Source: a virus
Lineage: Duplodnaviria; Caudoviricetes
Length of the DNA stretch: 64,000 bases
Strand: one strand, 5' to 3'
IMG/VR virus record: IMGVR_UViG_3300036824_000037
Location: 1 to 64,000 of that record
In this document: piece after piece, positions 3,221 to 64,000 of the stretch
How the letters are laid out: each line of letters begins with the position of its first letter
Numbering within the stretch: position 1 is the stretch's first letter
Translations under genes and position numbers: made by a program
Notes under the pieces: model-generated
Seen by the model: only the letters and a program-made list of their open reading frames with translations
The model's database searches: none
What the model was told of the DNA's origin: nothing

Positions 3221-3499
3221 CTACTCGGACACGGGCGTCTTGGCCGCCGCCTTCGACGCGGACGCCTTCTTCGACGCGGCCGCCGCTCCGGCGTCCTTCG
3301 ACGCGCCCCCGGATTCCTTGTTGGGCTCCTGCGCGGGCTCTGGTTCCGGCGCGGGCACCGAGACGAACCCGCCGTCGGGGATCTCCAGCAGCGCCTGCGC
3401 GAGGACGTCGTCGACTTCGACGACGTCCTCGGTGGTGCTCCACTCGAGCCCCCCGGGCGCGGAGCCCGGGACGCCCTTGGTCTTTCGCAGCCACGCCAT
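3221..3499 (-). CDS. Small hypothetical protein after capsid
   Basis: MAWLRKTKG... preceded by GGAGG; low-complexity C-terminus. Confidence 0.6.
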   Translation of the reverse strand: MAWLRKTKGVPGSAPGGLEWSTTEDVVEVDDVLAQALLEIPDGGFVSVPAPEPEPAQEPNKESGGASKDAGAAAASKKASASKAAAKTPVSE

Positions 3500-3547
3500 C
3501 GGCGGGCCTCCCATCGGGGTGATAGTGATATGCGGGACGGGGGCGCC

Positions 3548-3575
3548 GCCCCGGCCGGATGGGTCCCGGCCGGGG
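3548..3575 (-). terminator. Hairpin after capsid gene, identical to 1309-1336
   Basis: 28-bp exact copy, but without a T-tract. Confidence 0.5.
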
Positions 3576-3584
3576 AACGGCGGC

Positions 3585-4943: not shown

Positions 4944-5071
4944 CGCGGCCTCGCCTTTCTGTGGGCATGGCAAAGGCCCCGCGCGGCGTCGTGCCGGGCG
5001 GGGCCTATGGCCGGTGAAGAGGTTGCGGGTCGGGGCCCCTCACCGGGGCCGGGTGGCGGTGGCCGTGACGG

Positions 5072-6937
5072 TCAGGCGCCGACCTTGCCGATGTCGCCGA
5101 GCAGGATGTCGGCGCGGTTGTCCCAGATCTCGGTGTCGGTCATGGGCTTGTCGCCGTGGTCGGATTCGGTCGTGCGGTGCCCCTTGCGCGGGGGCAGCCC
5201 GTATTCGCTGACGATGCTGTCGCGCAGCGCCGGGATCGCGGCCTTCAGCGCCTCGGCGACGGTCGCGGCGAGGTCGGCCTTGGTGACCGCCTCGACGGCC
5301 GGGGTCGCGGGGGCGGCCTCCTGTGTGGGTGCGGCGGCTGGAGCCGGGCTGGGCTCGGCAGTGGCCTGCTGGGTCGGCGCGGACTCGGTGGCCGGGGCCG
5401 GGCGCAGCGCCGCGATCAGGGCGGTGAACTGCTCGTTCTGCTGGCGCATCAGCGCGGCGAACTGCTCCGCCGTGACGCCGACGGCCGGGGCGGGTGTGGG
5501 AGTGGCCGCCTCGGCGGCCGGAGTGACGGTCTCGCTCACGGCGGACTCCTCTACTGGGGGTGGGGATGCGGGCGCCTGGGTCGGCGCCGGGGTCACGTAG
5601 CCGCTCGCTTCGGCGGGGACGGACAGTTCGGGTCCGTATTCGGCGCCGATCGCGGCGCCCGGGGGTGACACTGCTGCGGATTCGCCACGGGGCGCGGAGC
5701 CGCACACCTCACAGCCGCACACGCATGGGCACCCGGGACCGCCGGCCATCTCGTCGGGTACCGCGCACCCGCACCCGCACGGGCAGCCGGAGCCGGGAGC
5801 GGGGCACTCGTCATCGCCGGTGGCGTCCTCGATGTCGTCGCCCTCGCCCGCCTCGCTGTCGTCGCCCGGGTCGCCGGGCACGTCGATGTCGGCGTCCATG
5901 TCCGGGTCCAGGGCGCCGAGCGCGTCCAGCGCAGCCACGATCGCCGCGGTCGCGACGGCGCGCAGGCCCGACGGGTCGATCGACGGCGCGCGCAGCGTGA
6001 GGGACACGGGGCCGTTGTAGGCGTCGATCGCGAACCCGGCGCGGCCCTCGGGGCCGTCGTAGCACTCGCGGATCTCCCCGAACCGGGTCGCGGGCGCCGA
6101 CTCCTTGAGTGAGCCGTCCGCGTTCCAGTTGTCAGGGATCATCCCGGTCAGGCCGAGGGCCTTGGCGCGGTCGATGACGTGTGCCCGGATCTTGTCGTGG
6201 TCGGCGCCGCCGCGGCCGACGGCGCGGATCGCGCGGCGCAGGTCCGCCTTGTTCTTGATCGTGTAGGCGGGTTCGCCGTCGGCGTTCTTCATCGCCTGCC
6301 CGGCCTTGAGGGCGTCGCGCTTCTGCGCCGCGGTGTACTCCAGGGCGGGCGCCGCATCGGGGGCCGCGATGGTGTCGGTCTCGGCCACGCGGGCCTCCCA
6401 GGTCTCGGAGATAGGGCTGCGGCCGGGGGTGTGGGCGGCCGACTCGGAGGGCCGCGAGCCCTTCGGCGGGTCGATCAGGGCCGTGACGACGCCCGGGGAG
6501 GCGGTGAAGTCGATGAAGTCGATCTCCAGGTCGTCGGCCGTGACGACCTGCTCGCCCCCGTGCTCTACCTTGCGCTCGCCGATGAACCAGCCGTGGATGC
6601 TGACCGATCGCAGGGCGGGAGGGCCGCCGTCGTCGGGGTAGACCAGTTCGGCGATGTCCCGCGCGGGTGCGGTGTCGTACCAGCGGGCATCGAAGGTCGC
6701 GGACCCGTCCGCCTCCTGCTTTACGGCCACGATCCGACCCGTGATCAGCCTCGAGTCGTCTCCCGCGCCGTGCGATGTCCGCATCACGATCGGCAGGCCG
6801 TCGGGGTCGGCGATGCGCGCCTGCATCCGCGCGACCGCCTTGCCGATCATCTCCTTCGAGTAGAGTCGCCGATTCAGAGACACCCCGGGGCGCAGGAACG
6901 TACCGGAGAGCGGCTTCTTCGTGATCGCCGTGGCCAT
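5072..6937 (-). CDS. Capsid maturation protease/scaffold fusion
   Basis: N-terminal PGVSLNRRLYS...H...SVSIHG...IDFTASPGV prohead-protease pattern; Ala/Pro-rich scaffold-like C-terminus. Confidence 0.75.
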   Translation of the reverse strand: MATAITKKPLSGTFLRPGVSLNRRLYSKEMIGKAVARMQARIADPDGLPIVMRTSHGAGDDSRLITGRIVAVKQEADGSATFDARWYDTAPARDIAELVYPDDGGPPALRSVSIHGWFIGERKVEHGGEQVVTADDLEIDFIDFTASPGVVTALIDPPKGSRPSESAAHTPGRSPISETWEARVAETDTIAAPDAAPALEYTAAQKRDALKAGQAMKNADGEPAYTIKNKADLRRAIRAVGRGGADHDKIRAHVIDRAKALGLTGMIPDNWNADGSLKESAPATRFGEIRECYDGPEGRAGFAIDAYNGPVSLTLRAPSIDPSGLRAVATAAIVAALDALGALDPDMDADIDVPGDPGDDSEAGEGDDIEDATGDDECPAPGSGCPCGCGCAVPDEMAGGPGCPCVCGCEVCGSAPRGESAAVSPPGAAIGAEYGPELSVPAEASGYVTPAPTQAPASPPPVEESAVSETVTPAAEAATPTPAPAVGVTAEQFAALMRQQNEQFTALIAALRPAPATESAPTQQATAEPSPAPAAAPTQEAAPATPAVEAVTKADLAATVAEALKAAIPALRDSIVSEYGLPPRKGHRTTESDHGDKPMTDTEIWDNRADILLGDIGKVGA

Positions 6938-6941
6938 CGCG

Positions 6942-7319
6942 TCACCGCCCGATCAGGGTGATGCAGGACTGCGGGAACTTCGGCGTCGTACCACCGAGGG
7001 TCCAGGTGACCTGGCACTGGCTCGGCAGCACCAGGGACCCGGTGCCGGCGACGTGCACACCGGCGGACGCGGAGGCCTTCGTGGTGCTCGCGGTCAGTTG
7101 CGTCAGGGTCAGCGCGGCGGGGAACACGTTGCCGAACGCGTCGAGGATGTCGAGCTGCACGCTGAGCGTCGGGGTGGTGCCGGTGGGCGTGCCGACGACG
7201 AACGCCGCGAGCCACAGGTCGGTCACATCGTGGGTGTCGATGGTGCCCGAGTTGGATCCTGCTCCGGATGCGTCGAACTGCTTTTGGAAGATGATGCGGC
7301 CGTACGGGGAATACGCCAT
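6942..7319 (-). CDS. Hypothetical beta-rich virion protein
   Basis: 125 aa Thr/Gly-rich, GGAGG RBS, in the head module. Confidence 0.65.
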   Translation of the reverse strand: MAYSPYGRIIFQKQFDASGAGSNSGTIDTHDVTDLWLAAFVVGTPTGTTPTLSVQLDILDAFGNVFPAALTLTQLTASTTKASASAGVHVAGTGSLVLPSQCQVTWTLGGTTPKFPQSCITLIGR

Positions 7320-7352
7320 CGCCGCCTCCGTCCGCTCGAAGGTGGGGCGGCG

Positions 7353-8861
7353 TCAGGCCGCGGTCAGGTATCTGTCATACGAGTCGGGCAGCGACCAGTC
7401 CGAGGCGAGCGCACACCGGCAGCGCGCGTGCGTGGGAATCTCCGGGGTATCGGCGAGCAGATACGGCGACCCGGCCTCATTTGCCTCGCACGCTGCGCAC
7501 ACTCTCGAGTCGGATGCGGTCAGCACCGAGACGTAGGCGACGCCCTCGCTGGCGTAGAGGGCGAGGGCGCCCTGGCTCAGCGCGGTCGACAGCGCCCAGT
7601 CAGTGATGAACGCCACCGCGTCGCCGTCCACGCCGTCGAGCACAGCACCGGCCGCGTCGAGCATGTCCAGGTAAGAGGCGCCGTCCGCGGCGAGCTGACC
7701 GAGTGCACGCCCGAGTTCATCGGCAGCGCGGCCGATCATGCGCCCGAGCCAGCCGTCGGCGTCCGCCCACAACTGGCCGAGGTTGGCGAGCGCGTCGTAG
7801 GCGTCGGCGAACGCCAGGTCAAAGTCGATGCCGATCTTCCCGGCTCCCTGCCCGGCCAGGGCGATCGCCCCGGCGGCGCCTTCGGCGCGCCCGGAGCGCA
7901 GTGCGTCGCGCATCGCGTCGCGCAGCCGCTGCCATGCCCGGCCAGCGGGCAGCCAGGCGAGCAGGGTTAGAGCAGCGTCGCGGGCCGCCTTCTTGGCGCG
8001 GGCGAGCAGCGCCGGGTCGGCGGCCTCGGTGACGCCGAGGCTGGTGCGCAGGTGCTTGACCATCGCGCCGATGTCGAGTGCTGCGACAGCGTCGCGCCAG
8101 GCGGCGAGCATGACCGCGCCGTGCTTCGCGATCAGTGCGTCGCGGCGCTGGTAGATCTGCGCCCACAGTCCTTCGAGCGCGCCGAGCTTCAGGGTCGCTT
8201 CGAGGATCCCGGGGTCGTGCATGTGTTCGCACGCCATGCGTACGGCCGCGACGCAGCCGGCTTTGACCCGGTCGGTCATGGGTCCGCCGGTGCGCGCCCA
8301 CCCGGTGGCGTATGCCTCGCGGGCGAGGTCGGCGAGCGGATGTGCGGCGGGGGCTCGGGTCTCGGCCCTGGTTGCGAGCGGGACGTCGATGCGGGTGGTG
8401 CCGTGCTCGACGGACAGCGCGCCGACCAGGAAGCTCAGGGGCGCGAGCCGCCCGGTGGTGTCCGGCTCGCTGGCGTCAATGTAGGCCCTGGACAGGTGGG
8501 CTGTGAATCCGTGCTCGCGCGGGATGTCCACGCCGTGTTCCGTCAGGGCATCCAGGGCGGCGCGGCGCAGGTCTTCGAGTTCGGGTGCGTCGATGAGGGC
8601 GATGAGAACGTCCTGGTCGCCGCCGGTGAACCGGGCGGATCCCGCGACGGTGGCGGTGAATGGGCCGACCGACCGGGCTGCGTCTGCGGCGGCGGCGATC
8701 AGGTCGCGGACGTCGACGTCGGCCGCTTGCCCCGTGTAGGCGATGGTGACGTGAAGCGAGTCGGGGCTCAGTCCACCGGGCAGCGCGAGGGCCGCCGCGA
8801 TGTCCGGCGGCGGGTAGAGGGCCAGCATGCAGGAGTCGGAATAGTCGGGCTGATCGGACAC
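7353..8861 (-). CDS. 2H phosphoesterase (2'-5' RNA ligase/Acb1-like) fused to MuF-like minor head domain
   Basis: LHVTIAY and AHLSRAY HxT/S motifs at the N-terminus; TASDSRVCAAC...PTHARCRC MuF motif at the C-terminus; directly after portal. Confidence 0.8.
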   Translation of the reverse strand: MSDQPDYSDSCMLALYPPPDIAAALALPGGLSPDSLHVTIAYTGQAADVDVRDLIAAAADAARSVGPFTATVAGSARFTGGDQDVLIALIDAPELEDLRRAALDALTEHGVDIPREHGFTAHLSRAYIDASEPDTTGRLAPLSFLVGALSVEHGTTRIDVPLATRAETRAPAAHPLADLAREAYATGWARTGGPMTDRVKAGCVAAVRMACEHMHDPGILEATLKLGALEGLWAQIYQRRDALIAKHGAVMLAAWRDAVAALDIGAMVKHLRTSLGVTEAADPALLARAKKAARDAALTLLAWLPAGRAWQRLRDAMRDALRSGRAEGAAGAIALAGQGAGKIGIDFDLAFADAYDALANLGQLWADADGWLGRMIGRAADELGRALGQLAADGASYLDMLDAAGAVLDGVDGDAVAFITDWALSTALSQGALALYASEGVAYVSVLTASDSRVCAACEANEAGSPYLLADTPEIPTHARCRCALASDWSLPDSYDRYLTAA

Positions 8862-8986
8862 GGCGCCCCCCGACTCCCGAGCGGGCGTCAGCGACTCACC
8901 GGCTCACCCGATCTGCTTGGAGACCAGCGGCAGAACGTCCTGGGCACGGGTGGGATGTCCCTGATTCGGCACTGCGGCACCTCCCC

Positions 8987-10579
8987 TCAGGCGGCGATGG
9001 GAACCTTCGGCAGTTCGTCCAACGCCTGGGCGCGGCGCATCCGGTACGCCGCCTCCCAGGCGCGTTCGATCCGGCGCGCGTCCCGGTCGTACGCGGACTC
9101 GGCCGGAGGCGCGCCCTGGGGTGCGGCGGGCGTGAGCGCGGGGACGCCCGGGGCCACGGTGGGTGGTGCGGGCGTCTTGGGTTCGGCCTTGGCGACCTGT
9201 ACGGGCTCGCCCGCCTGCACCTCGGCCGGTTCCAGCGCGGTCCCCTTGAGTTTCATGGCGACCCCGGCCTTGCTCATGGAGTCCATGTCGCGCCACAGCA
9301 CCAGGTTCTGCCGGTCCACCAGGATCGGGTCGTCGCCGCCCTCGACGGGGGGCTCGCCGATCTCGTCGCGGTAGCGGTTGAGCACGATCGAGCCGTTGCG
9401 CAGGCGCGTGTCGCGGATCTCTTCCACGGTCTTGCTGTCGCGGTAGTCGATCTCGCCGAATTCCAGGTGGGAGTCGGCGATGCCGAAGCCGCGCTGCACC
9501 AGATGGAAGTTGATCTTTTCGAGGACGAGGTTCGCGACCGGGATGATCGTGTTGACACGCAGGGTCTTGTCCTGCGACTCGCCGGAGCCGCCGCCGAGGT
9601 TGCCCGTCTCGATGATGCCGAGTTTCGCCGGCGGCACGCCGAAGCAGGCGATGATCTCGTCTCGCAGTTGCCGGGTCGTGTCCAGGTAGTCGGTGACCTT
9701 GCGCGCGTCGAGCACCTGCACGAGTCCGCCACCGGTGGTGATGACCGGGGTGCCGACCGCCTTGGGTCCGAGGTTGAACACCATGTACTTCTCGCGCCAC
9801 CGCTGGACCTCGGTGTCCTGGGAGTGCGCGAGGTCCACGTGCAGGCGGGGCGGGTCGCCGCGGCGGAAGCACTCCTTGATCGTGGCTTCCGCGAACAGCC
9901 ACGCGGTGACCGGCAGCAGCGCCTTCTGGGCCGGGCTCACTCCGTACACGCCGCCGCGGGGGGCGTCCAGGGAGATGTGGATGACCTGGTCGGTGGTGAA
10001 CTCGGCGGTGCGGGTGCCGCCTCCGCCGTCGATCTGCTGCACGTACCCGGTGACCTCGCCGTGGTCGTCGGCGATCACGGCCATGGTGGTGGCGTCCAGC
10101 GCGTACAGGGCGACGGGTTCGCCGAGCAGGGACACGACCTCGATGTAGGCGTCGCCGAAGAGGTTCAGGTCGATCACGCAACTGCGCAGGAGTTGGACCA
10201 TGTCCTCGCGCGGGTTGGTGTACTTGAGCAGCCTCTTGAGGCGCCCCACCTCGGGTGAGTCGGGCGGGACCTTGCCCTCGACGTCGGAGTCGGACACGAC
10301 CTGCAGGCCGCCCGCGGTGACGGTGCGCGCGATCAGATCGATCGGGGCGCTCATCCACGGGCAGGTCAGGTACGCCTGGTGGAGCTGGTTCAGGATCTGC
10401 TGGCGTTCCTGGCTGTACGCCGCCGCGTTGCGGGCGCTGCTGGGCACCAGGCCGGCGCCGTACTCGTAGCCGACGCGCTGTACCTCGGCGGCGCCCGGGG
10501 GTGCGTCTGCCCGGTTGCGCGCCGCCTCGGCAGCGGCGCGGCGGGTGAATACCTCGCGGACACGGCTGCGCAGCCCCAT
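8987..10579 (-). CDS. Phage portal protein
   Basis: 530 aa; FGDAYIEV, VYGVSP, IIACFGVPP, NRYRDEIGEPPVEGGD HK97-type portal motifs. Confidence 0.92.
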   Translation of the reverse strand: MGLRSRVREVFTRRAAAEAARNRADAPPGAAEVQRVGYEYGAGLVPSSARNAAAYSQERQQILNQLHQAYLTCPWMSAPIDLIARTVTAGGLQVVSDSDVEGKVPPDSPEVGRLKRLLKYTNPREDMVQLLRSCVIDLNLFGDAYIEVVSLLGEPVALYALDATTMAVIADDHGEVTGYVQQIDGGGGTRTAEFTTDQVIHISLDAPRGGVYGVSPAQKALLPVTAWLFAEATIKECFRRGDPPRLHVDLAHSQDTEVQRWREKYMVFNLGPKAVGTPVITTGGGLVQVLDARKVTDYLDTTRQLRDEIIACFGVPPAKLGIIETGNLGGGSGESQDKTLRVNTIIPVANLVLEKINFHLVQRGFGIADSHLEFGEIDYRDSKTVEEIRDTRLRNGSIVLNRYRDEIGEPPVEGGDDPILVDRQNLVLWRDMDSMSKAGVAMKLKGTALEPAEVQAGEPVQVAKAEPKTPAPPTVAPGVPALTPAAPQGAPPAESAYDRDARRIERAWEAAYRMRRAQALDELPKVPIAA

Positions 10580-10734
10580 CGCGTCAGCCCGGGACCACGG
10601 TCGCGGCAGGATTTGTGGCGGCGTGCCCGACGGCGGGGCTCGTCATCCTCGCGCACGCACGCATGTCGCCTCCCCGCCGGATTCGCGGTCAGCCGCGGTG
10701 CGGGGGCACAGCGCCATGGAGGCCGGCCTGCGGG

Positions 10735-11247
10735 TCATGCGGTGCGGGTGAGCACGACATGCTCGATCATGCCGATGTAGCCGGTCGCCGACGCGTTCTT
10801 GGTCGCCATCAAGAAGCTCAGCGTGTGCCTGCCGACGGTGATTGCGACCCCGGCCAGGGCGGTGCGCGCGGGCGCCAGACTCGCGGCGTACCCGTCGATC
10901 GTGCCCGCCACGGCGCCGTCGACCTTCACCGTGTAGATGCCGCGGCTTTGGAACGGCAAGTGGAACAACTCGATGTCGTACACGCCGGCGTCGCAGGCGA
11001 AGTCAAAGCTGATCTGGTCGCCCTGGGCGCCGTCGGACTGGTTGACCCAGCCGTAGTAAGCGGCGTCGGCGATGTAGGTGGGGGTCCACACGCCGATCGG
11101 CGCGATCACGGTGGACGCGACGCCGTTGCCCTCGACGACGATCTGTCGGGAGTACCCGGCGACGCTTTGGCTGCCCGCGACGACTGCTTCCGCGTAGAAG
11201 GTGCCGGCGTTCTCGCGGTTCATCACGGCCACGGTCGTGTCGGGCAT
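10735..11247 (-). CDS. Hypothetical protein, possible beta-sandwich/CBM-like fold
   Basis: AGVYDIEL...GIYTVKVDG...GRHTLSF pattern; GAGGGGAG RBS. Confidence 0.6.
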   Translation of the reverse strand: MPDTTVAVMNRENAGTFYAEAVVAGSQSVAGYSRQIVVEGNGVASTVIAPIGVWTPTYIADAAYYGWVNQSDGAQGDQISFDFACDAGVYDIELFHLPFQSRGIYTVKVDGAVAGTIDGYAASLAPARTALAGVAITVGRHTLSFLMATKNASATGYIGMIEHVVLTRTA

Positions 11248-11288
11248 CTCGGGCTCCCCTCGGTCGGCGCTCGCGGCGGAGTGTGTGG

Positions 11289-12863
11289 TCAGCCCCAGGG
11301 GCTGTAGCCGACGGCGACGGGGAACCCGCCGTAGCTGGCCGGCGGCGCAGGAGGCGGCACCAGAACCGGCTCGGCGGGGCGCGCCTGCGGGTCGATCCCG
11401 TCGGGGGTCTTCTCCTCGGCGGGGAAGTGGAACGACGCCTGCCCACCTATGGACATCAGGAGGTAGCGTGCGCTGTCGTACCAGTGGTCCGGCGCGTCCG
11501 TGTCCACGTCCTCCGGGCGGTGCGGATCACGCGGCAGGGCGCCCATCGTCTTCACGAACATGGGGCACGAACCGTCGAGTACATGCAGCAGCGGGCAGGT
11601 CGCCCAGCCCAGGTCCCGGTGATACGGGCACGCGGGCGCCTCGGCGAGGTAGGTGTGCAGTCGTGATTTGCCGCCGAGCCGGTCGTTGTCGCCCTTCGTC
11701 AGATGCAGCCCCTCGACCGCCATCTGGTCGGCGGGCGGAAGCGACGACCCGGTCTTGCCCCACATCGCCGGGTCCGCCGCGACGAGCAGCACACCCAGCC
11801 CCGCGTTCGCCGCGAGGATCTGGCGGGCCTGCTCGCGCTCCGGGGTCTGCACCATGGTCAGTTCGCGGTAGAACCACAGGCGACCGTCGCCGTCGCGCGC
11901 CGCGGCGAGGTACACCGAGGGCGCCGCCCACCCGTAGTCCATGCCACCGCGACGCTGCCACGACGCTGGGACCTCGAACGGGGGCACCACGATCCGGTCG
12001 CGTTTCCAGTCGGGGAACGCGGCGTCGGGCATCGCGGACCAGTCTCCGTCCCGAATGCGGGCGCGCAGCTCGGGGTCGGCGATCCCGGCGAGCGTCTTGT
12101 CGTAGTCGCCGACGTAGGGGTTGTCGGTGGCCTTGGCGGGGATGAAGATCCGCCGCCGCCCCGCCTTGTCGATAATCTCCCGGGCCCCGTGGTCGGTGGC
12201 GTCGACGTAGTCGTCCTTGACCACCGAATGCCCGACGTGGCCGGGATTGCTGGCAGATCTACAGCCGAGCGCGGGCACCCCCGCGACGCCGGAGCGCACG
12301 CGCGTGTAGAGGAAGTCCACGACGTCCGGCGGCATCGTGGTGCGCTCGTCGATGATCAGAAGGTTGATCTCGGCGGAGGAGAGCGCGGCCGCTTCCTCGA
12401 TGTTCTTCGCGTGCGCGAAGGTCAGGATGCTCGTCCCAGTCGCGGCCGGGAACGTCAACTCGTACTTCGAGGCGTTCCACCTGGCGCCGACGGCCTTGGC
12501 GTAGTTGTATCGGGCCAGGTTGCGCAGCACCGACTGGTTGAGTTGTGGGAACGTCTTGCGGAACCAGAAGACCTGAATCCCAGGGAACCCTATACACGTG
12601 CGGATAGCCATGGCCAGGAGCGACGCGCTCTTACCGCCGCCGCCGGCGCCTCCGAAAAGCACGTCAAGGTCTTCATCCGGGAGGGCGAGGAACCGCTCCT
12701 GCGGGCACTGGCCGCACATCGGCGGCAGATCCTGCTCGGGTGTTCCCGCGAGCCGGGCGAGTACGCGTGGTTTGCACACGGCTTCGAACCCGAGTCGTGT
12801 GAGAGCGTCGGGCCGCTCAAACGCTTGAGCGGCGTATTCGACCCAGTCGGGCGTGGCGGCCAT
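11289..12863 (-). CDS. terL: Terminase large subunit
   Basis: Walker A GGAGGGGKS, Walker B LLIIDE, ASNPG, nuclease GGMDYG and DHWYDSARY. Confidence 0.95.
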   Translation of the reverse strand: MAATPDWVEYAAQAFERPDALTRLGFEAVCKPRVLARLAGTPEQDLPPMCGQCPQERFLALPDEDLDVLFGGAGGGGKSASLLAMAIRTCIGFPGIQVFWFRKTFPQLNQSVLRNLARYNYAKAVGARWNASKYELTFPAATGTSILTFAHAKNIEEAAALSSAEINLLIIDERTTMPPDVVDFLYTRVRSGVAGVPALGCRSASNPGHVGHSVVKDDYVDATDHGAREIIDKAGRRRIFIPAKATDNPYVGDYDKTLAGIADPELRARIRDGDWSAMPDAAFPDWKRDRIVVPPFEVPASWQRRGGMDYGWAAPSVYLAAARDGDGRLWFYRELTMVQTPEREQARQILAANAGLGVLLVAADPAMWGKTGSSLPPADQMAVEGLHLTKGDNDRLGGKSRLHTYLAEAPACPYHRDLGWATCPLLHVLDGSCPMFVKTMGALPRDPHRPEDVDTDAPDHWYDSARYLLMSIGGQASFHFPAEEKTPDGIDPQARPAEPVLVPPPAPPASYGGFPVAVGYSPWG

Positions 12864-44823: not shown

Positions 44824-45881
44824 ATGACCACCGAAACCACCGCGCGCGCCCGCCGCAGCCGCCGGCCATCCAACGCGGACCGCTCGCACCGCCTCGACGA
44901 CCTCACCGCGTGGCTCACCGCCCGCAACAGCGTGGCACCCACGCAGAACCAGGAGACCCGCTCATGCTGATGCTCGAAGGCGCCCTGATCGCGCTCGGCG
45001 CGTTCCTGCTCGGCCGCGTACTGCCCGGCCGACGCCGCACACCCAAACCCGCGCCGCCACCCCGGCCGATCTGCGACTGCCGGCACAGCATCAGCTTCCA
45101 CACCGACGGAACCGGCGGCTGCGCGTGGGTGGGCGAGAAGTTCTACAAGTCCGGCTGCGGCGCGATCACCCCGAAGTGCACCTGCCTGCGGTACGTCGGC
45201 CCGACCCCGCTGCCGGAGTACTTCGCCAACGAGATCAGCGCGACATGACCGCCCTGCCGCCGGAGATCACCCGCAACCTCGACGCGCACCGCACCGCGCT
45301 CGCGTTCATCCGCGCCATGCTCACCGACCGGATCGACGACGCACTCGAGCTGTGGTTCACCTGCCCCGAAGACCAGCGCATCGACATCGGCTTCGCCCTC
45401 GCCACCCAAGCCGCCGCATACCTGAGCGCCCGATGCGGCGGAGGGGAAGCCGGCGGCCGGATGGCGCTCCGCTACGCCGACGAGACGCTGCTGGCCATGG
45501 CGCAGGAGGACGGCGGATGAGCGCCCCGGCTGGCTTCGAGCCTTATCGAACAACACCCCGGCCCGCTGCCGGGCCATCCCCGCTAGCAAGGAGGCACCAC
45601 CCATGACCCTGACCGCCCTCGACGCCCTAGACACTGACCTGCTCGACGCCCTCGCGGCTGTGGAGCGGGCACGCCGACGACTCGAACAGGCGCGGTCGGC
45701 CGGCGGATCCACCGTTCGCGGATCCACCGCCGGCGTACCCGCGCTCGCCGCAGCGTCGGACCCGAACCGCGCGCAGCGTCCGGACGAGTGCGTCATCCGG
45801 GGCGTCCGCTACCGCCTCGTGCCCAACGCGCACGAGGTGATCGAGGCGGCACTGGCCCGGAAGACGGCCGCACGTGGTTGA
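44824..45881 (+). other. Small hypothetical CDSs (44824-44970, 44964-45248, 45245-45520, 45603-45881)
   Basis: RBS-preceded, mostly coupled ORFs. Confidence 0.55.
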
Positions 45882-45883
45882 GG

Positions 45884-46450
45884 TCGCCCCGCGCCAAAGA
45901 GCGGCCAGGCCGCGCCTCACCCCGCCAGGGCGCGTCGCGCCAAACCGGGCCGGGCCATGCCACGCCTGCCATACCTGGCCCGTCCTCGCCGCGACGCGCC
46001 CAGCCAGGCCGGACCCCGCCTGCCGTGCCATGCCTGGCGATACCTCGCCTAGCCACGCCTGCCACACCAAGTCGGAACCCGACCCACCTGGCCAATCCGG
46101 GACTGGACGCACCATGACGTGCCGGAACGCGCCTGCCAGTACCTGCCAAGCCATACCGAGCCGAGCCCGGACCTGCCGTGCCTGCCGCGCCATGCCGTGC
46201 CGGGCTCTGCCGGGACGGGACACGCCGGGACTCGCGATGCCCTACCTGCCCCACCGAGCCGGGCCTAGCCTATCCGCGCCCTGCCTGGACGAGTCCGACC
46301 GAACCGGGCCTGCCGGGACCCGCCAAGCCTCGCCGTGCCTCAACGCGCCTATCCGTGCCGAGCCCGAACTCGCCCCGCCTGCCGGGCCATGCCAAGCCAA
46401 ACCGCGCCAAAACCACCGTGCCCAACCACGCCAGGACGTGCCTGCCGCGC
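45884..46450 (-). repeat. (GGY-NN)n pentamer array with 11 GGCAGGY delimiters; putative multi-guide ncRNA
   Basis: Near-strict 5-nt register; delimiters (plus-strand RCCTGCC) at 45964, 46018, 46057, 46131, 46141, 46171, 46180, 46244, 46308, 46377 and 46440. Confidence 0.9.
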
Positions 46451-46888
46451 TCACGCAGCGGCGCTATCCGCCCCGCCGACGTCCTGACGCACCATCGCCA
46501 CGAACTCCTCGAACTCCCTGTAGCGGCGATACAGCGCCTTCCACTCCCGCTCCATCGCCCGCAACACCAACTCGCTGCGAAAAGGATCCTCCCGCACCTC
46601 CTCGGCCGGGTCGTACGCGTACCCGTCCTTCGACGGCACCGACACGAACGCCCGCACCGACTTGGCCGGCCCCGACTCGTCGGCCTCCCGGTACGCGATC
46701 CGCACACTGCGGATCAACTCGCGCGCCTGGTGCAGCCGGTACGCCTCGCCCGCGGCCGAGTCGTCCCACTCGAACCGCGAGTGCAGCGGATGCGACGGCT
46801 CGCGCGCGGCGGTCACCACGTGCCTGTCTGCGAGCGTTCCGTACTGTGAACGGATCGCCAGCAGTTCCGAACGCAGGTCGGTGCTCAC
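46451..46888 (-). CDS. Partner protein of the RAMP-like gene
   Basis: 145 aa, GTGA-coupled to the upstream gene; HPLHSRFEWDDSAAGEAYRLHQARELI motif. Confidence 0.8.
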   Translation of the reverse strand: MSTDLRSELLAIRSQYGTLADRHVVTAAREPSHPLHSRFEWDDSAAGEAYRLHQARELIRSVRIAYREADESGPAKSVRAFVSVPSKDGYAYDPAEEVREDPFRSELVLRAMEREWKALYRRYREFEEFVAMVRQDVGGADSAAA

Positions 46889-47520
46889 GCAGCCACCAGC
46901 TCGCGGAGTCCGCGCACTACCTCGACCGGGCGGTTCGGGTCCAGGACATAGGTGCCGAAGTCGCCGTCCTTCTCCGGACGCCACTCGCCAACCCCGACGC
47001 CACCCCCACCGGCCTCGATCAGCGAGAGCACCGATTCCTGGGTGAGCGCCGAGGTGACGTACGTGACCTCCAGCGTCGCCGACCAGGGCAGGAACTGCGG
47101 CCGGTAGCGCAGGTCCGAGCCGCTGCGGTTGACCGTGACCACGTCCTCGCGCATCACCGGCTCGCCGACGATCCGCACGAGCCCTCGGCCATCGGAGCCG
47201 ATCTCGCCACGGAAGAACATGTACTGCTTGAGCGCGGTCATCGTGACGCCGCTGAAGAGGCGCGCACCGCTGACGGTGGCCGCCTTGAACGCGAGGGCGG
47301 GAAAGCCGTATCCGCCGTCGGCGAGCCGGTAGAACGCGGCCTCGTACTCGCCCTGCGGGTCCTTGTTCTGCTTGGGCGCCTTGCGGCCCTGCATGTTGTC
47401 CAGCATCTGGCGCTTGGCCTTCTCGCTGAACTTGTGCACGATCAGCGGCGCGGTCCCGGCGATGGGGACGTGGATCGTCTCGGTGCCGATCCGGCTGATG
47501 TTGATCGTGGCATCGGTCAT
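46885..47520 (-). CDS. Solo RAMP/Cas7-like RNA-binding protein
   Basis: 211 aa, GGAG RBS; first strand IAGTAPLIVH, YGFPALAFKAA helix motif, C-terminal Gly-rich loop AGGGGVGVGEWRPEKDGDFG. Confidence 0.72.
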   Translation of the reverse strand: MTDATINISRIGTETIHVPIAGTAPLIVHKFSEKAKRQMLDNMQGRKAPKQNKDPQGEYEAAFYRLADGGYGFPALAFKAATVSGARLFSGVTMTALKQYMFFRGEIGSDGRGLVRIVGEPVMREDVVTVNRSGSDLRYRPQFLPWSATLEVTYVTSALTQESVLSLIEAGGGGVGVGEWRPEKDGDFGTYVLDPNRPVEVVRGLRELVAA

Positions 47521-47589
47521 GGCTGTCTCCAGAGAGAGATCAAGGGAATGGTGAGTTTTCAGCCACTCCGCGCCACGAACCGTGCGAGC

Positions 47590-47620
47590 AGTATAGGAGA
47601 TGCAATGCGAAGATATGCAA
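47590..47620 (-). promoter_or_regulatory. Putative promoter of the RAMP cassette
   Basis: TTGCAT-N19-TATACT in an AT-richer patch; TTGCAT is repeated within the spacer. Confidence 0.45.
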
Positions 47621-47756
47621 GTGAGGCCACGCCCCGGAGCCGGGCGGCGGCGGTTACCTGCCACGAATCGACCTGCACGGCCGGCTCCGGGGATGGGGTT
47701 CAGGGCGTGCGCCCCCTCGCGGACCGATGCCACGGCGCGGCGAGGGAGGACTCCCG

Positions 47757-48041
47757 ATGACCTACGTCACCTGGCGCCGCCCGAACCCGGACGACGACCG
47801 CCCCACCGTCCCCTACTCGTGGTTCGGCTGGGGCCACCTGTACGGGCGCCGCTGGCAGTACTGGCCGCCCTGGGGCGTGACGTACTGGTGGCGGCCTCAG
47901 GCCATCGACGCGTGCGACGGCGAGCGAGCGTCGAAACTCGTCACCGTGCCACTGCTCGGCGCCATCGTGTGGTTCTTCAACTCGCCCTGCGACTGCCCGG
48001 GCGACGCGTCGGCCCAAGGCTGCGAGCCGGGTCAGCGATGA
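47757..48041 (+). CDS. Trp-rich hypothetical protein
   Basis: GGAGG RBS; MTYVTWRR... Confidence 0.55.
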   Translation: MTYVTWRRPNPDDDRPTVPYSWFGWGHLYGRRWQYWPPWGVTYWWRPQAIDACDGERASKLVTVPLLGAIVWFFNSPCDCPGDASAQGCEPGQR

Positions 48042-48125
48042 CTGCACGTCACGGTTCTGCATCTTCGCCGTGCGCGGCCCCGTCCGGCCGTACGGTTGCC
48101 CCGTCGCCGTCCCGTGGGGGGAACC

Positions 48126-48668
48126 ATGCGCAAGCGCGCCCGCATCATCCTGTGGTCCGTCGGGACCGCCGCGGCGGTCCCGGTCGCGGTCGGCATGGTG
48201 CAGGGCGCCCAGGAATCGCTGCACAGCACACCGGCCGCGGCTACCGCGTCTTCAGCGGCGCCGAGCAGGCCCGCGCCGGCCACCTCCACCCCCGCAGCGC
48301 CGCCACCGTCGAGCGCCCCGCCCAAGCCAGCGCCGTCCACGCAGCCCCCGTCCCCCGCGCCCACCGTGCTCGTGTCGGACCTGCCGTCCTGGGACCAGGA
48401 CGGCGACCCCGCCTGCCGGATGCACTACTCCCAGACCGCCGACGGGCGCACGGTCACCCGGTTCACGATCACCAAGCCCGGGGAGCTAATCACCCACGTG
48501 TCCGGGCCCGCAGGCTTGCAACGCCACGACGAGCAGGTCACCGCGAACACCTGGGCGTACACCTACGACACGACCCTCGCGCAGATCACCGACATGGGGG
48601 CGGTGCTGCACCTGCCGGGCGGATCACAGGTCGCCTGCGGCATCTCGGCGGGCGCGATGGCGCCCTAG
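48126..48668 (+). CDS. Secreted or membrane-anchored Pro-rich protein
   Basis: MRKRAR plus hydrophobic segment, Pro/Ser linker, two Cys. Confidence 0.7.
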   Translation: MRKRARIILWSVGTAAAVPVAVGMVQGAQESLHSTPAAATASSAAPSRPAPATSTPAAPPPSSAPPKPAPSTQPPSPAPTVLVSDLPSWDQDGDPACRMHYSQTADGRTVTRFTITKPGELITHVSGPAGLQRHDEQVTANTWAYTYDTTLAQITDMGAVLHLPGGSQVACGISAGAMAP

Positions 48669-48913
48669 CCGCGCCAGGTCACACGGCGGATGTACACCAG
48701 CCGGTCCAACTCGTCGACCTGGTACTGCACCGCGAGCAGCCCCGCATCGCGGACCCGGGTGCGCGGAACGTCCGGGGGCTCGAACGAACCGCGCCCCGAC
48801 GGGTCCCGGCAGATCTCCCGCACCAGCGCCTCGACCTGGTCGCGCACCGCGGTAGGCAGCGCCTGCACGTCGGCGACCGCCGCGGCGGACCACAGTTCGT
48901 CGTAGCCGCTCAA
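48665..48913 (-). CDS. RelE/ParE-like toxin
   Basis: TTG start overlaps the upstream stop; Y..LWSAAAVADVQALP...VQYQVDELDRLVYIRRV. Confidence 0.65.
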   Translation of the reverse strand: MSGYDELWSAAAVADVQALPTAVRDQVEALVREICRDPSGRGSFEPPDVPRTRVRDAGLLAVQYQVDELDRLVYIRRVTWRG

Positions 48914-49182
48914 CCTCGGCGCGCGAACGGGCTCGGCAGCCACGCCACCTCGTCGAGCGGCTTCAACAGGTCCGCTTTGAGTGTCGGGTCGGTCTCGACC
49001 AGCGCCTGCGCCCACCAGCGGCGCTTGACCAGGTCCACCGCTACCAGGTCGCCGGCGTCCACGGCGGTACCGAGTTCGTCGAGGAACCGCTCGAGCAGGG
49101 GTTCGGGCAGGTGCGCGCGGATCGAGGCGACGGTCTTGGCGACCCGGGGCGGCGCGGGCTGGTCGATCGGCTGCGCGGTCAT
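48910..49182 (-). CDS. DUF6247-like putative antitoxin
   Basis: MTAQP...TVASIRAHLP....RFLDEL...RRWWAQA. Confidence 0.65.
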   Translation of the reverse strand: MTAQPIDQPAPPRVAKTVASIRAHLPEPLLERFLDELGTAVDAGDLVAVDLVKRRWWAQALVETDPTLKADLLKPLDEVAWLPSPFARRG

Positions 49183-49287
49183 GCCGTCAACGCTACCCGC
49201 GGCGGCGAGGCGCGTCAGCTGGTCCGGCAATCCCCGCGCGCGGCGTCCCGGCGGCGCGGCATCATCGAACAACCCCAGGAGGAATCC

Positions 49288-51414
49288 GTGACCGACATGA
49301 CCCCCTATGGCGCGCTGGCCGGGATCGTGGTCGAACCCACCGCCGGATACCTCACCCTGATCGTGCCCCCGGTCAGCCCCATGCCCGACGGCGCGCTCAT
49401 GCCCCCGTCCCCGTACCTGATCGGCGCGAAGGACACCGCCACCGGACAGTTGCGCTGCGGCGTGCTCGGCGTGCACCTGCACTCCACGATCGCGAAGGAC
49501 CAGATCGAGATCCACGTCTACCTCGACGAGATCGCGCAGCCCGACGGCGCCCCCGCCGTCACGCCCGAGCAGGTCGGCGAAGTCCTGCGGCGCGTCGGCC
49601 ACGACGCCGCGCGCTGGCCGGAAGGGGTGCCGACGGTGCGCAGCCGGTTCCGGGTGGACGGGTTCGAGCTCGGCGAGCAGCGTTCGCCGTTCTTCGACCC
49701 GGAGAGGTTCTGGCGCGACGTGGGCGATGTGAAGCGGGCGCTGGAGCTCGACGATCCCGAAGCGGACGGAGACGAGACCGCATGACGATCACGGAGGACC
49801 CGACTATGACCAGTGAACCGCTCGACGACGACCGTCTCGAGCGGATCCTCGCGCACGTCCCGAACTGCCGCTACGGCTGCATCGCCTGCGAGTCGGCACC
49901 AGCCCTGATCGCCGACCTGCGGGAGCTGCGCCGGCGCCTGGACGACCTCGGAGATCAGGCCGTCGAGCGCATGGCCGCCCGGCTGATGGAGGACATGCGG
50001 CTGCGGTCCCTGGAGATTCGCGGCGGCAGCTTCGAGATGGACATCACCGAGGCCCGCGAGATGTGCGCCCTGTTCGTCGGCGCTGCCCGCGCGATGCTGG
50101 GGGACGCACCCAACTACACCGAGACGCGGGTGGACTTCCCGACGGCGAGGGTCGAGTTCGAGGTGAAGATCTCCGAGTCGTTCGACTCATACGTGCTGAC
50201 CGTGCAACGCGCCGGGAAACTCACCCCGCACGAGGCGCGCAAGCAGGCGGAGAAGGAGCGCGACGAGGCGCTTGAGCGGGTCGCGGACCTCGAGGCGCAA
50301 CTCGCCGAGACGCGCGAAGAGCTCGACCAGGCCCGCACGACAGGATGGACCGGCAAGTGAGCGACGCGACCATGGAAGACCCGGCCGGGCGCCTGCTGTG
50401 GGACGAGGCGCGGGAGCTGGCGCGCGACGCGCTCGGCGACCAGGCCGACGACGAGGTGCTGCTCCAGGAGGTCACCGAGCAGATCTGCGAGCAGCTGAAA
50501 GCCGGGCAGCGGTGACCGGGCGCGCCGTCGCCGCCGGCTACTTCCTGTGGTCCCTAGTCGACTCCGTCCTGGGCGGGCTCTGCGCGACCGCGGTCCTGCG
50601 GTGGCACGGCTCGACGTTCACCGGGAGCTGGCTGACCGACTTCGCGCTCATCATGGCCGCCCACGCGGCTGCGGCGCCATTCCTCGGTCCCCGGCTCGAA
50701 CGCTGGCTCACCCGCGACGACTGAGGTCGCGTGACCGCACTGGGCGCCACGCCGTGGACCCGTGACGGACTGTCCGCTACAGTAGCGATATGAGCCCACG
50801 CAAGACCGTCTTCGTCTCGGTCAACCTCACGGAGGCGGCCCGCGACGAACTGCGCCAAGCCGTTCTGGACCTCACCACACCGGCCGGACGCCGACTGTCC
50901 ATGTCCGACGTCCTGACCGCGGCGCTGCAGGTCGCCGCCGACAACCCCGAGCAGATGCTCAACAAGCTGGGCGACAAGCCCGGAGAGGACTGATCATGGC
51001 CAAGTTCAAGGTCTACCTCGACACCGACCTCGTGAACTCCCGCGTCGAGCGCGAGTTCGAGATCCCCGACGACGAACTTGACGGGCTGTCCGACGAGTCG
51101 CGCAACACCCTGATCCGCGAGTACGCGCAGGACGAGGTGTGGCACCTGTTCGACTGGGGCTACGAGGAAGTCGGCGCCTCGACCGCGGCGCCCGAGGCCG
51201 CCGTGAAGGACGGCCTCGGCAAGCGCTACCTGCGCAGCCTGACGAGCTGACCATGGGCCGCGACACCCGCACCGCCACGATCCACGCGACCGTCTCCCGG
51301 CACAACAGCGGGCAGGACGACATCGACGACGCCCTGTGGGACAAGCTGCTCGCCGAGGTCCGCGCGATCGTGAACAAGCCCGAGTACGAACCCATCCGCC
51401 CCGACCTCGGATAA
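49288..51414 (+). other. Small hypothetical CDSs (49288-49785, 49782-50360, 50513-50724, 50790-50993, 50996-51250, 51253-51414)
   Basis: Coupled plus-strand ORFs with high GC3. Confidence 0.55.
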
Positions 51415-51426
51415 GTGAGGGTCCGC

Positions 51427-52272
51427 GTGACCGACAAGACCGCGCTCGGCGACCGCGTCAAGCGATACGAGCAAGCCGCCCACACCGTGCTGCCGCGCCG
51501 CTGCTACACCCTGATCCGCTGCGACGGACGCGCCTTCCACTCCTACCTGCGCGGCGCCGACAAGCCCTTCGACTACGCCTTCATGGACGACATGGACGCC
51601 ACCGCCGCAGCCCTCTGCGCGGAGATCTCCGGCGCCGCGTTCGCGTATGTGCAGTCCGACGAGATCAGCGTGCTGCTCACCGACTTCGCCACCCACGGCA
51701 CCGAGCCCTGGTTCGGCGGCGAGGTGCAGAAGATGGTGTCCATCGCCGCGGCCACCGCGACCGCGGCCCTGAACGCACGCCGCTACGACGGACCCAACGG
51801 CGCCCCGGGCACGGACCGTCTCGCGACGTTCGACGCAAGGGTGTTCACCCTCGCCGACGCCGCCGAGGTCGGCAACTACTTCATCTGGCGCCAACGCGAC
51901 GCGGTCCGAAACTCGATCACCATGGCGGCGCAGGCCCTGTTCTCGCATAAGCAACTCAACGGGGTGAACAGCGACCAGAAGCAGCAACTGCTGTGGGAGT
52001 CGGGCATCAACTGGAACGACTACCCGGACGGCGCGAAACGCGGCCGGATCGTCACCCGCAAGACCGGCGAGCGGGAGGTGACGTTCACCCACAAGCGCAC
52101 CCAGGAAACCGAGACGGTCACCGCGATGAGGTCGTGGTGGGACGCTGAGCCCGCCCCGCACTTCACGCTGGAGCCGGGTGGGTTCCTCGCGCGGACAATC
52201 CCGCCGCTGCCGACCCTGGCTGCCGCATCGGCAGAGTCGCCCGCCCTCGCAGAACTGGAGCCGACGCCGTGA
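51427..52272 (+). CDS. tRNA(His) guanylyltransferase Thg1-like 3'-5' polymerase
   Basis: LIRCDGRAFH, KPFD, YVQSDEIS, WFGGEVQKMVS, FDAR and YFIWRQRDAVRNSI. Confidence 0.95.
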   Translation: MTDKTALGDRVKRYEQAAHTVLPRRCYTLIRCDGRAFHSYLRGADKPFDYAFMDDMDATAAALCAEISGAAFAYVQSDEISVLLTDFATHGTEPWFGGEVQKMVSIAAATATAALNARRYDGPNGAPGTDRLATFDARVFTLADAAEVGNYFIWRQRDAVRNSITMAAQALFSHKQLNGVNSDQKQQLLWESGINWNDYPDGAKRGRIVTRKTGEREVTFTHKRTQETETVTAMRSWWDAEPAPHFTLEPGGFLARTIPPLPTLAAASAESPALAELEPTP

Positions 52273-55704: not shown

Positions 55705-55844
55705 ATCCTGCCGGTGCGGGCGAGCTCGAGCAGCGTGGCCGCGTCACCCGGTCGCGTGCAATCCGAGGAAACTCCTGACGCGCCATCAACCGGGTGCTAA
55801 GACAAGAAACACCCGCGCCACCCAACCCGGAAAGGATCACCCTG

Positions 55845-56216
55845 ATGCGCATCGAACGTGTGGTGCTGACCGACGACTTGGACCCCGAGAGCGAAGCCGC
55901 GGAAACGGTCTTGTTCAGCCTCGACGGCACCAACTACCAGATCGACCTCAACGACGAGAACGCCGCCGCGTTTCGCGCAACCGTCAGCCGATACGCCGAC
56001 GCCGGCCGACGCGTGCGCGGCCAGCACGCCCGGGCGCCGCGCGTCTGGCGTCCCGCACCCAAAGCGCCCGCCCGCCCGGTCGTGGCGTCCGCGCCGCCAG
56101 AGCCGAGCACGCACGACGTGCGGGCCTGGGCGCGCAGCGAGGGCATCGCGGTCAACGACAGGGGGCGCCTGAGCCGCGAACTGATCGACCGGTACCAGAG
56201 CGCCCACGCGCACTGA
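55845..56216 (+). CDS. lsr2: Lsr2 nucleoid-associated protein
   Basis: LTDDLD...ETVLFSLDGTNYQIDL...VRAWARSEGIAVNDRGRL. Confidence 0.93.
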   Translation: MRIERVVLTDDLDPESEAAETVLFSLDGTNYQIDLNDENAAAFRATVSRYADAGRRVRGQHARAPRVWRPAPKAPARPVVASAPPEPSTHDVRAWARSEGIAVNDRGRLSRELIDRYQSAHAH

Positions 56217-63111: not shown

Positions 63112-64000
63112 TCAGCCGCGCACGAACCCCGTCACCAGTTGCGGCAGCGACGCGTCGAACCCCGCGACCGCGAGCACCCCCGGGTCGCGCGGGTCGCCGA
63201 TCGAATGCCCGGCCGCCGTCATCGACGCGACCACCAGCCGCGCCGCCGGATTGACCGCCGCGCGGTACGCCGCGAGCTCCTGCACCGGATGCGAACCGCC
63301 CTGCCACGTCTCGTTGTCCGTGAGCGCCAGCACCCCGTCCACCGCGAGCCCCTGCCGGCACGCCCACGAGAACGGCAGCGCGAGGTTCGTGCCGCCGCCC
63401 GACGGACGCCACGACGCGATCTCCCGCAGGTTCGTGCGCGCAGTGACCCGCGAGGCGTGCACGGAGGTGTCCACGTCGATGACGTGCGCGTTGCCGCGCT
63501 CGATCCGCGCCATGATGACCGCCATCGCGCACCCGACCTCGTACGGCGACCCGATCGGCGAACCGCCGACCGTGACCGCCGCGCCCCAGGCGCCGGACAT
63601 GGATCCGCTGGAGTCCACCGCGACCAGCAGGCGCCGGCCGGAGGGCTGCACGTGCCCGAAGGAGAGCTCGTACGCCTCCTCCAGTGCGTCGCTGATCGCC
63701 GGGACCGGCGCCCACGTCTGTACGGGCACCTTCGGGTTGGGCTGCGAGCGCCCGGAGCCGTAGACCCGCAGCGCGAGGAACACGTCCAGCGGGTGGATGC
63801 GCCCGGCCGCGAGCGCCGACTGGTCGGTCAGCCGGGCTGCGGCGCGCCGGGTCGCGTCGCCCATGGGCTTCAGCGCCCCGATCCGGGTCATCCGCGCCAG
63901 GTTGCGGATCAGCGCGGTCATCCCGACCGTGTCGACCAGCGCCTCCCACACCTGCGGCGAGGTGAGCACGGCGTCGGGCAGGAACTCCCACGGCACGCCG
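63112..64000 (-). CDS. Ro60/Rsr TROVE + vWA protein, 5'-truncated by the window
   Basis: [46 protein letters not shown] and GFDA. Confidence 0.92.

Follow-up and report, generated by a model that had tools for sequence, protein, structure and literature searches.

The stretch of viral DNA considered here, comprising positions 1 to 64,000 of IMG/VR record IMGVR_UViG_3300036824_000037 (hereafter the window; 64,000 nucleotides (nt)), carries a cassette composed of a gene for a 211-amino-acid (aa) RAMP/Cas7-like protein, a gene for a 145-aa partner and an array of GGY-NN pentamers. Judged from homology and array structure, this cassette very probably belongs to the VIPR (Viral Interference Programmable Repeat) family. 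One short guide of the array, guide K, matches the promoter of its own cassette perfectly and varies together with it among related loci, which makes it a candidate autoregulatory guide.

VIPR has been described in three bioRxiv preprints of 2026 (10.64898/2026.04.26.720920, 10.64898/2026.04.26.720927, 10.64898/2026.10.15.759431). Its members combine Vipr, a RAMP protein, with an accessory gene (vap) and with vrRNAs in which GGY and NN alternate; on target DNA the NN dinucleotides form base pairs, and a single base is passed over after each of them. Seven types are distinguished, and the work also provides a Vipr tree, 667 representatives, and "staggered arrays", in which successive vrRNAs share 1 nt (fig. 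S18) (10.64898/2026.04.26.720920). Vipr is a minimal RAMP with RRM core, thumb, and G-loop, the neighbouring array has four or more tandem GGY-NN (YNNGG) units on the same strand, and the two-gene loci, with vipr and one of vap1-6, lack cas genes and CRISPR arrays and are mostly viral or proviral. The structure places one protomer on each repeat, with the GGY held in the SUSP1 protein by H17, R138, D177, W178, and R179 (10.64898/2026.04.26.720927). The system has also been set in the context of phage-satellite conflict, in which guides are directed against rival VIPR systems and avoid self, the self score being lower than the rival score (10.64898/2026.10.15.759431). The published target criterion is an NN match of at least 80%, and the exploitation of codon periodicity by VIPR guides is likewise a published idea; no self-targets were reported for the clades tested, other VIPR types included, and autoregulation is not mentioned in any of the three preprints. 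The first-pass annotation of this DNA had suggested VIPR by name, and correctly so; the novelty that it implied falls away, since the design, mechanism, and biology of VIPR are already published and the locus is not of a new kind. What may be new are the co-varying self-promoter guide and a second guide directed at genes of the ThiF/E1 family.

Evidence for VIPR family membership

The 211-aa protein matched PDB entry 36pp_D ("SUSP1 Vipr protein") with an E-value of 3.9e-5 as a single sequence and of 9.7e-13 as a profile of 64 diverse homologs, and hhalign aligned it with the SUSP1 gene product at a probability of 98.3%. It also matched PHROG 4652 (E 1.5e-40), and the family comprises 3,459 cluster representatives at E ≤ 0.001, with homologs in genomes of Actinomycetota, Alphaproteobacteria, Clostridia, Nitrospiraceae, and Phycisphaerales. 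When its AlphaFold (AF2) model (pLDDT 93) was submitted to Foldseek, Csm3 and type VII Cas7 backbone subunits were the best matches (E ~5e-6), so that the RAMP/Cas7-like protein proposed in the first-pass annotation is borne out by both SUSP1 homology and predicted fold. Residues H29, R140, E179, W180, and R181 align to SUSP1 H17, R138, D177, W178, and R179, respectively, and are strongly conserved over the 64 diverse homologs (R140 and R181 in 64/64, E/D179 in 63/64, H29 in 56/64, and W180 in 55/64). This conservation of the published GGY-contact residues lends support to the earlier proposal that each protomer would bind one GGY-NN unit, with GGY as the protein handle and NN as targeting information.

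The 5-nt GGY-NN array that accompanies this gene is real: GGY is followed by GGY at a lag of 5 nt 52 times in 558 nt, against 5.4±2.3 in dinucleotide-preserving shuffles (maximum 13; an excess of ~20 standard deviations), and this count never exceeds 10 in other 550-nt stretches of the window on either strand. The array occurs as a single copy in the entire 128,816-bp record. Secondary peaks appear at lags of 4, 9, and 14 because the phase slips by 1 nt at 15 CAGG junctions. Read strictly, the array contains 13 runs of 3-6 units, and with degenerate units allowed the runs that stay in register reach 14 units; the runs finish in GGCAG (twice GGCCAG), and the next run begins on that last G, giving an overlap of 1 nt. 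The same grammar is found in the related loci L035, L036, L001, and L132, and relatives whose Vipr is 75-91% identical keep the GGY/GGCAG grammar with different NN strings, guide K excepted. Linkage to the gene extends across the family, with a 5-nt GGY array beside the homolog on the same strand in 31 of 34 species-genome loci and on the opposite strand in none. A search of the cassette against Rfam returned no family, hammerhead included. In the Thermoactinospora rubra locus L001, arrays (4621-4675; 3490-3900, 5112-5209) lie upstream of vipr, between vipr and vap, and downstream of vap, the one between the two genes being a single clean 11-unit run.

The 145-aa partner belongs to PHROG 15946 (E 1.8e-30), a family of unknown function, and in 107 of 119 related loci vipr is immediately followed by a homolog of this partner. 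Its model (AF2 pLDDT 89.5) contains an N-terminal winged-helix-like domain, a conserved HPLHSRFEWDD loop, and a 37-residue C-terminal helix, and VIA-align related it to forkhead, MecI, and Fur-type winged helices (Z 5.7-6.3). A PDB sequence search with the profile of this protein gave no match, Foldseek with its model gave nothing at E ≤ 0.001, and the ESM Atlas returned unnamed viral clusters only. No nuclease signature is seen in the protein, and the lack of this signature together with the winged-helix-like fold agrees with the nuclease-free system suggested at first. The lack of the signature fits the published class of non-nuclease DNA-binding vap proteins and would argue for repression rather than cleavage.

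Organization of the cassette

All cassette elements, namely the promoter-like patch, the two open reading frames (ORFs), and the array, lie on the minus strand at the coordinates expected for them (Table 1). The reading of the first-pass annotation, an inverted cassette in which a promoter-like patch is followed by a 211-aa ORF, a coupled 145-aa ORF, and an array that starts a few nt from the stop codon, holds both in these coordinates and in the analysis of GC content at third codon positions, which supports both ORFs and, with the neighbours (45125-45881 and 47727-50360) on the plus strand, the inversion of the cassette. The vipr ORF runs from an ATG at 47520, with a GGAG ribosome-binding site 8 nt before it, to a stop at 46885-46887; the 145-aa ORF starts with a GTG at 46888 that overlaps the vipr stop (GTGA) and has its own stop at 46451-46453. 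The first GGCAGG of the array is at 46446, 5 nt past this stop, and the array extends to ~45902, where its end adjoins that of a convergent plus-strand gene (45603-45881).

Table 1. Features of the cassette and their positions in the window
Feature	Coordinates	Strand	Details
Cassette promoter	47590..47620	-	-35 TTGCAT 47620-47615, 19-nt spacer, -10 TATACT 47595-47590; read from sequence
Predicted self-target of guide K	47591..47604	+	GTaTAgGAgATgCA; overlaps -10 box; 71-84 nt upstream of vipr ATG
5' leader, conserved	47567..47581	-	GGTTCGTGGCGCGGA; just 3' of -10 box
vipr, 211-aa RAMP/Cas7-like	46885..47520	-	G-loop GGGGVGVGEWRP, residues 171-182
vap-like accessory gene, 145 aa	46451..46888	-	start overlaps vipr stop; PHROG 15946
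vrRNA array, ~100 GGY-NN pentamers	45902..46446, 545 nt	-	15 CAGG-delimited segments of 2-14 in-register units
Guide K	46035..46059	-	GGCGT GGCTA GGCGA GGTAT CGCCA; NN = GT TA GA AT CA
Guide E, 13 in-register units	46182..46246	-	decodes to ThiF/E1 motif
Guide B, 14 units = 70 nt, longest uninterrupted run	46310..46379	-	

In related loci a TTGnnn box is situated 17-19 nt upstream of TAYACT. A strict sigma-70 scan (16-18 nt spacer) does not call the cassette promoter because the spacer is 19 nt. Most clade members have the 5' leader (GGTTCGTGGCGCGGA), several of them in slightly altered form, and it is missing from L378; the sequence further upstream is not alignable among clade members. The leader may mark where transcription starts, bind a protein, or act as a regulatory RNA element.

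A guide that matches its own promoter

The published rule, in which one base is skipped after each pair (skip 1), was applied to all in-register runs of the array against the 128.8-kb record, with skips of 0, 2, and 3 as controls. Guide K has a single perfect (10/10) site in the record, which overlaps the -10 box of the cassette itself (coding strand TGCATCTCCTATAC; Table 1), where a hand estimate from base composition gives a chance expectation of ~0.016 such sites per record. The comparison was extended to every close relative that could be fetched. In all 16 of the 16 loci with this promoter type, exactly one guide matches the own promoter with five NN pairs (10/10), at a self-site 71-84 nt before vipr. 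The 15 loci that carry the common allele are identical at every paired target position, three of the four skip positions vary, and guide K itself varies in the third base of GGY only, the neighbouring guides differing freely.

In L132, Vipr is 79% identical and the target reads, in NN terms, GT TA GA GT TA. Its guide (GGCGT GGTTA GGCGA GGTGT CGCTA) again matches 10/10, through a compensatory double change in which AT CA of the guide has become GT TA and the promoter is altered at the same two paired positions. In L378 the pairing of guide and promoter is kept despite a diverged downstream leader. Over all loci, the 200 nt that precede vipr (20.8 kb in total) contain 11 perfect 5-unit skip-1 matches and the other 615 kb contain 36, so that the density is ~9 times higher upstream; the corresponding upstream numbers with skips of 0, 2, and 3 are 3, 3, and 0. 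The self-promoter match and its compensatory variant are specific to skip 1, being absent with skips of 0, 2, and 3, and lend indirect, comparative support to binding of double-stranded DNA directed by vrRNAs. It appears about an even chance that guide K autoregulates the cassette.

In sister clades whose Vipr is 54-71% identical, the upstream layouts are different and an equivalent self-guide was not traced, and L138 and L139 have no self-guide. In other clades, L004 and the pair L097/L099 possess an own guide with a perfect 5-unit skip-1 match in the 200 nt that precede vipr (positions -34 and -62); L097 and L099 share guide and site, so these three loci amount to two independent cases. Self-promoter guides may therefore not be limited to one clade.

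Weighing the interpretation

Several observations weigh against assignment to VIPR and against an autoregulatory guide K. With regard to the family, the winged-helix match of the 145-aa protein is middling (Z ~6), and neither pairwise nor profile comparison detected a relation between this protein and SUSP1 vap1; the locus is therefore, on sequence comparison, probably not type II, and membership is reached at the level of the VIPR family, not at that of a type. A long invariant structured 3' tail of the SUSP1 kind was not found, the sole recurrent element being GGCAG(G), although its absence does not exclude the family because the tail defines the SUSP1 clade and tail-less staggered arrays are published. 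In addition, no convincing external target of guide B was found by exact patterns or patterns with up to 3 mismatches, a search not made at the criterion of at least 80% NN match. With regard to guide K, the upstream enrichment of skip-1 matches comes mostly from this one clade, and the 16 loci share descent and so represent roughly two independent observations. The guide has 5 matching units, compared with the 9-16 described for SUSP1 vrRNAs, and it continues in register for 3 more units, to 46020, without a promoter match (5/8 match). A local hairpin, GGCGA-GGUA-UCGCC (5 bp), is also predicted in its 3' half, and a structural or processing element is possible.

The hairpin leads to the best-surviving alternative, according to which the locus is a VIPR locus, segment K is a conserved hairpin acting as a processing, termination, or "tail" element, and the promoter match is due to coincidence and shared descent. 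L132 and L379 preserve the predicted stem GGCGA/UCGCC, with G-U wobbles, the fifth unit of K begins with CGC or TGC and not with GGY, five of the eight in-register units match, and ~0.012 chance matches per locus are expected in the 200-nt upstream region. However, this reading leaves unexplained why the changes in the L132 promoter fall on precisely the two positions altered in its guide, why promoter variation is confined to skip positions, and why the pairing persists in L378, where the leader has diverged; we consider it somewhat unlikely. Less probable still is that guide K serves to attack the VIPR promoters of related phages during co-infection, self-repression being a side effect. The target is conserved throughout the clade, so that relatives would be hit too, and anti-VIPR guides are documented (10.64898/2026.10.15.759431), but the published guides score lower on self than on rivals, whereas here the self-match is perfect at every locus, and the L132 guide tracks its own changed promoter and matches the common allele at only 8/10. 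Finally, it is scarcely credible that the array is a GC-rich simple repeat or coding sequence beside an unrelated phage protein. In favour of this reading, long ORFs run across the array in both directions, a usual feature of DNA with 71% GC, and Pfam contains no match for the 211-aa or the 145-aa protein. Against it, a period of 5 nt cannot be reconciled with coding, the array keeps to one strand and accompanies the gene in several phyla, and the 211-aa protein is homologous to a solved Vipr protein.

Candidate external targets of the longer guides

Read as the reverse complement with one skipped base per pair, guide E decodes to L-A-I/M-V-G-L-G-G-T-G-S-I/M-L. Its 10-unit core, read as codon positions 1-2, was found in at least 120 metagenome contigs, every time in the reading frame of AIVGLGGTGS, and all five of the ORFs checked among these matches are ThiF/E1-family members; full-length matches reach 24/26 at best. 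In viral contigs a single match was obtained (L131, 22/26), which is near chance on its own; the argument for guide E rests on the in-frame metagenome matches. No ThiF/E1-type homolog is encoded in the phage itself. The behaviour of guide E fits the published idea of codon periodicity.

The ThiF/E1-like proteins best matched by guide E (metagenome contigs L243, L236, and L203) are 440-470 aa long and have an extra N-terminal domain. Their E1 region scores against PADLOC "E1-E2" (Cap2-like) models with E-values of 1e-14 to 1e-21, all below the curated NCBIfam cut-offs.

For the long guides (13-14 units), no self-target above background was detected in the record, the best site of guide B (18/28) equalling the skip-0, skip-2, and skip-3 controls. 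Exact gapped patterns of 13 units of guide B and 12 units of guide E had no occurrence in viral contigs, and an 11-unit exact pattern of guide B, somewhat more specific than the guide E core, had none in either viral or metagenome contigs. Four related phage records and the provirus L131 gave no match to guide B when up to 3 mismatches were allowed.

Comparison with known systems

The closest comparator is the type II VIPR system of the Escherichia phage SUSP1 (PDB 36pp), whose reference locus was located and contains vipr, a 146-aa vap1, and GGY-NN tracts on the same strand and in the same order as here. Both loci are phage-borne, without cas genes or a CRISPR array, and share a homologous Vipr of ~200 aa with the same G-loop and GGY-contact residues, followed by a vap of ~145 aa and a same-strand GGY-NN array. 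They differ in the vap gene, since vap1 is not detectably related to the 145-aa protein, and in the array, as the SUSP1 tracts contain 9-16 units each with an invariant pseudoknot tail, whereas here short runs meet at GGCAG/G junctions that overlap by 1 nt. Moreover, the present host is a high-GC bacterium, and one guide matches its own promoter. With the staggered arrays of other VIPR types, the locus shares exactly the GGCAG/G pattern (10.64898/2026.04.26.720920, fig. S18).

The resemblance to Cas7/Csm3 of class 1 CRISPR-Cas systems extends to the RRM core, the thumb, the glycine-rich loop, and one protomer per fixed RNA step. Unlike in those systems, however, no second RRM is found here, no other cas genes were seen (Cas1 was searched for), there is no CRISPR array, and the steps measure 5 nt and rely on a sequence-specific GGY handle, where those of Cas7/Csm3 measure 6 nt on any spacer. 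A class 1 CRISPR-Cas system would be recognized by a Cas7 accompanied by other cas genes and a CRISPR array, and the neighbours in this case are phage genes. The first-pass annotation had stated that cas1, cas2, cas3, cas6, cas10, and CRISPR arrays are all missing from the window; this stands for Cas1, which was not found in the 128,816-bp record, and for CRISPR-like repeats, none of which occurs in the window, and is left as it was for cas2, cas3, cas6, and cas10, which were not searched one by one.

A precedent for guide-mediated feedback is the Cas9 operon of Streptococcus pyogenes, which is autorepressed by the long form of tracrRNA. There too a natural guide RNA of partial complementarity sends the effector to its own promoter and expression is damped; the effector family is a different one, pairing is contiguous, and the VIPR case considered here is predicted only.

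Genomic context

The source record, an IMG/VR virus of 128,816 bp with a CheckV completeness of 100%, encodes the major head, portal, and large terminase proteins at 3585-12863 of the window and an integrase elsewhere, with a DnaB-like helicase, methyltransferases, and the integrase further along the record. The genes around the cassette include Prim-Pol, repressor-like, Thg1-like, and Lsr2-like genes, and in close relatives the same cassette is inverted between the portal and terminase genes. The carrier is probably a 128.8-kb temperate phage, and its host a high-GC and probably actinobacterial species.

Two regions were considered as host DNA and rejected: the first 40 kb of the window (1-40 kb), because phage head, portal, and terminase genes are encoded there, and two ORFs of ~1,200 aa outside the window (record 119974-127368, minus strand), because the RpoC motif NADFDGD is missing. 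The latter are probably tape-measure or tail genes, and the position of such tail-type ORFs at one end, with head genes at the start of the window, suggests that the linear record is a permuted complete phage genome.

Three further genes hint at an RNA-repair module in the phage: a Thg1-like tRNA-His guanylyltransferase (51415-52272, plus strand; Pfam Thg1 E 4e-24, PHROG 4717 E 1.5e-74), an RNA-ligase-like gene between the portal and head genes (7353-8861, minus strand), and a gene for a 556-aa protein that occupies 63112-64000 of the window and continues to record position 64782 (L042:1112-2782, minus strand; PHROG 850 "RNA-binding protein", E 4e-57). The Lsr2-like nucleoid-associated protein gene (55794-56216, plus strand; PHROG 1223, E 3e-28) is typical of actinophages.

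Proposed mechanism and implications

By homology to SUSP1, a single promoter would serve vipr, the vap gene coupled to it in translation, and, through read-through, the array, and the transcript would be cut into short vrRNAs at the GGCAG/G junctions. Each Vipr protomer would then take up one GGY-NN unit and bury the GGY, leaving the exposed NN dinucleotides to pair with double-stranded DNA, where every third target base would be skipped. The bound filament is expected to block transcription without cutting, because the sole partner is a winged-helix-like protein without a nuclease signature. The comparative data suggest that guide K would pair with the -10 region of its own promoter and thereby exert negative feedback on the production of Vipr, Vap, and guides, and that the other guides would be aimed elsewhere, guide E at the codons for the nucleotide-binding motif in ThiF/E1-like genes that belong to rival elements or to host systems. 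The explanation as a whole, a VIPR system in a temperate phage with a self-promoter guide, is advanced with high confidence. The fuller account, in which guide K is an autoregulatory vrRNA that sets a feedback ceiling and co-evolves with the promoter, and guide E adds a second layer directed at the Rossmann-motif codons of ThiF/E1, might equally well prove right or wrong.

With this locus, the VIPR family would reach large temperate phages of high-GC bacteria, in a form with a staggered array and a widely conserved winged-helix partner. The co-variation of a 5-unit guide with a 14-bp promoter site provides independent comparative support for the 1-nt-skip rule outside Escherichia and Pseudomonas, and suggests that as few as 10 paired bases can be functional. 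Built-in feedback control, if present, would be relevant to the use of VIPR as a programmable repressor. The ThiF/E1-directed guide offers a concrete candidate class of targets, and if the ThiF/E1 genes belong to host defence systems, the phage would be using VIPR as an anti-defence tool.

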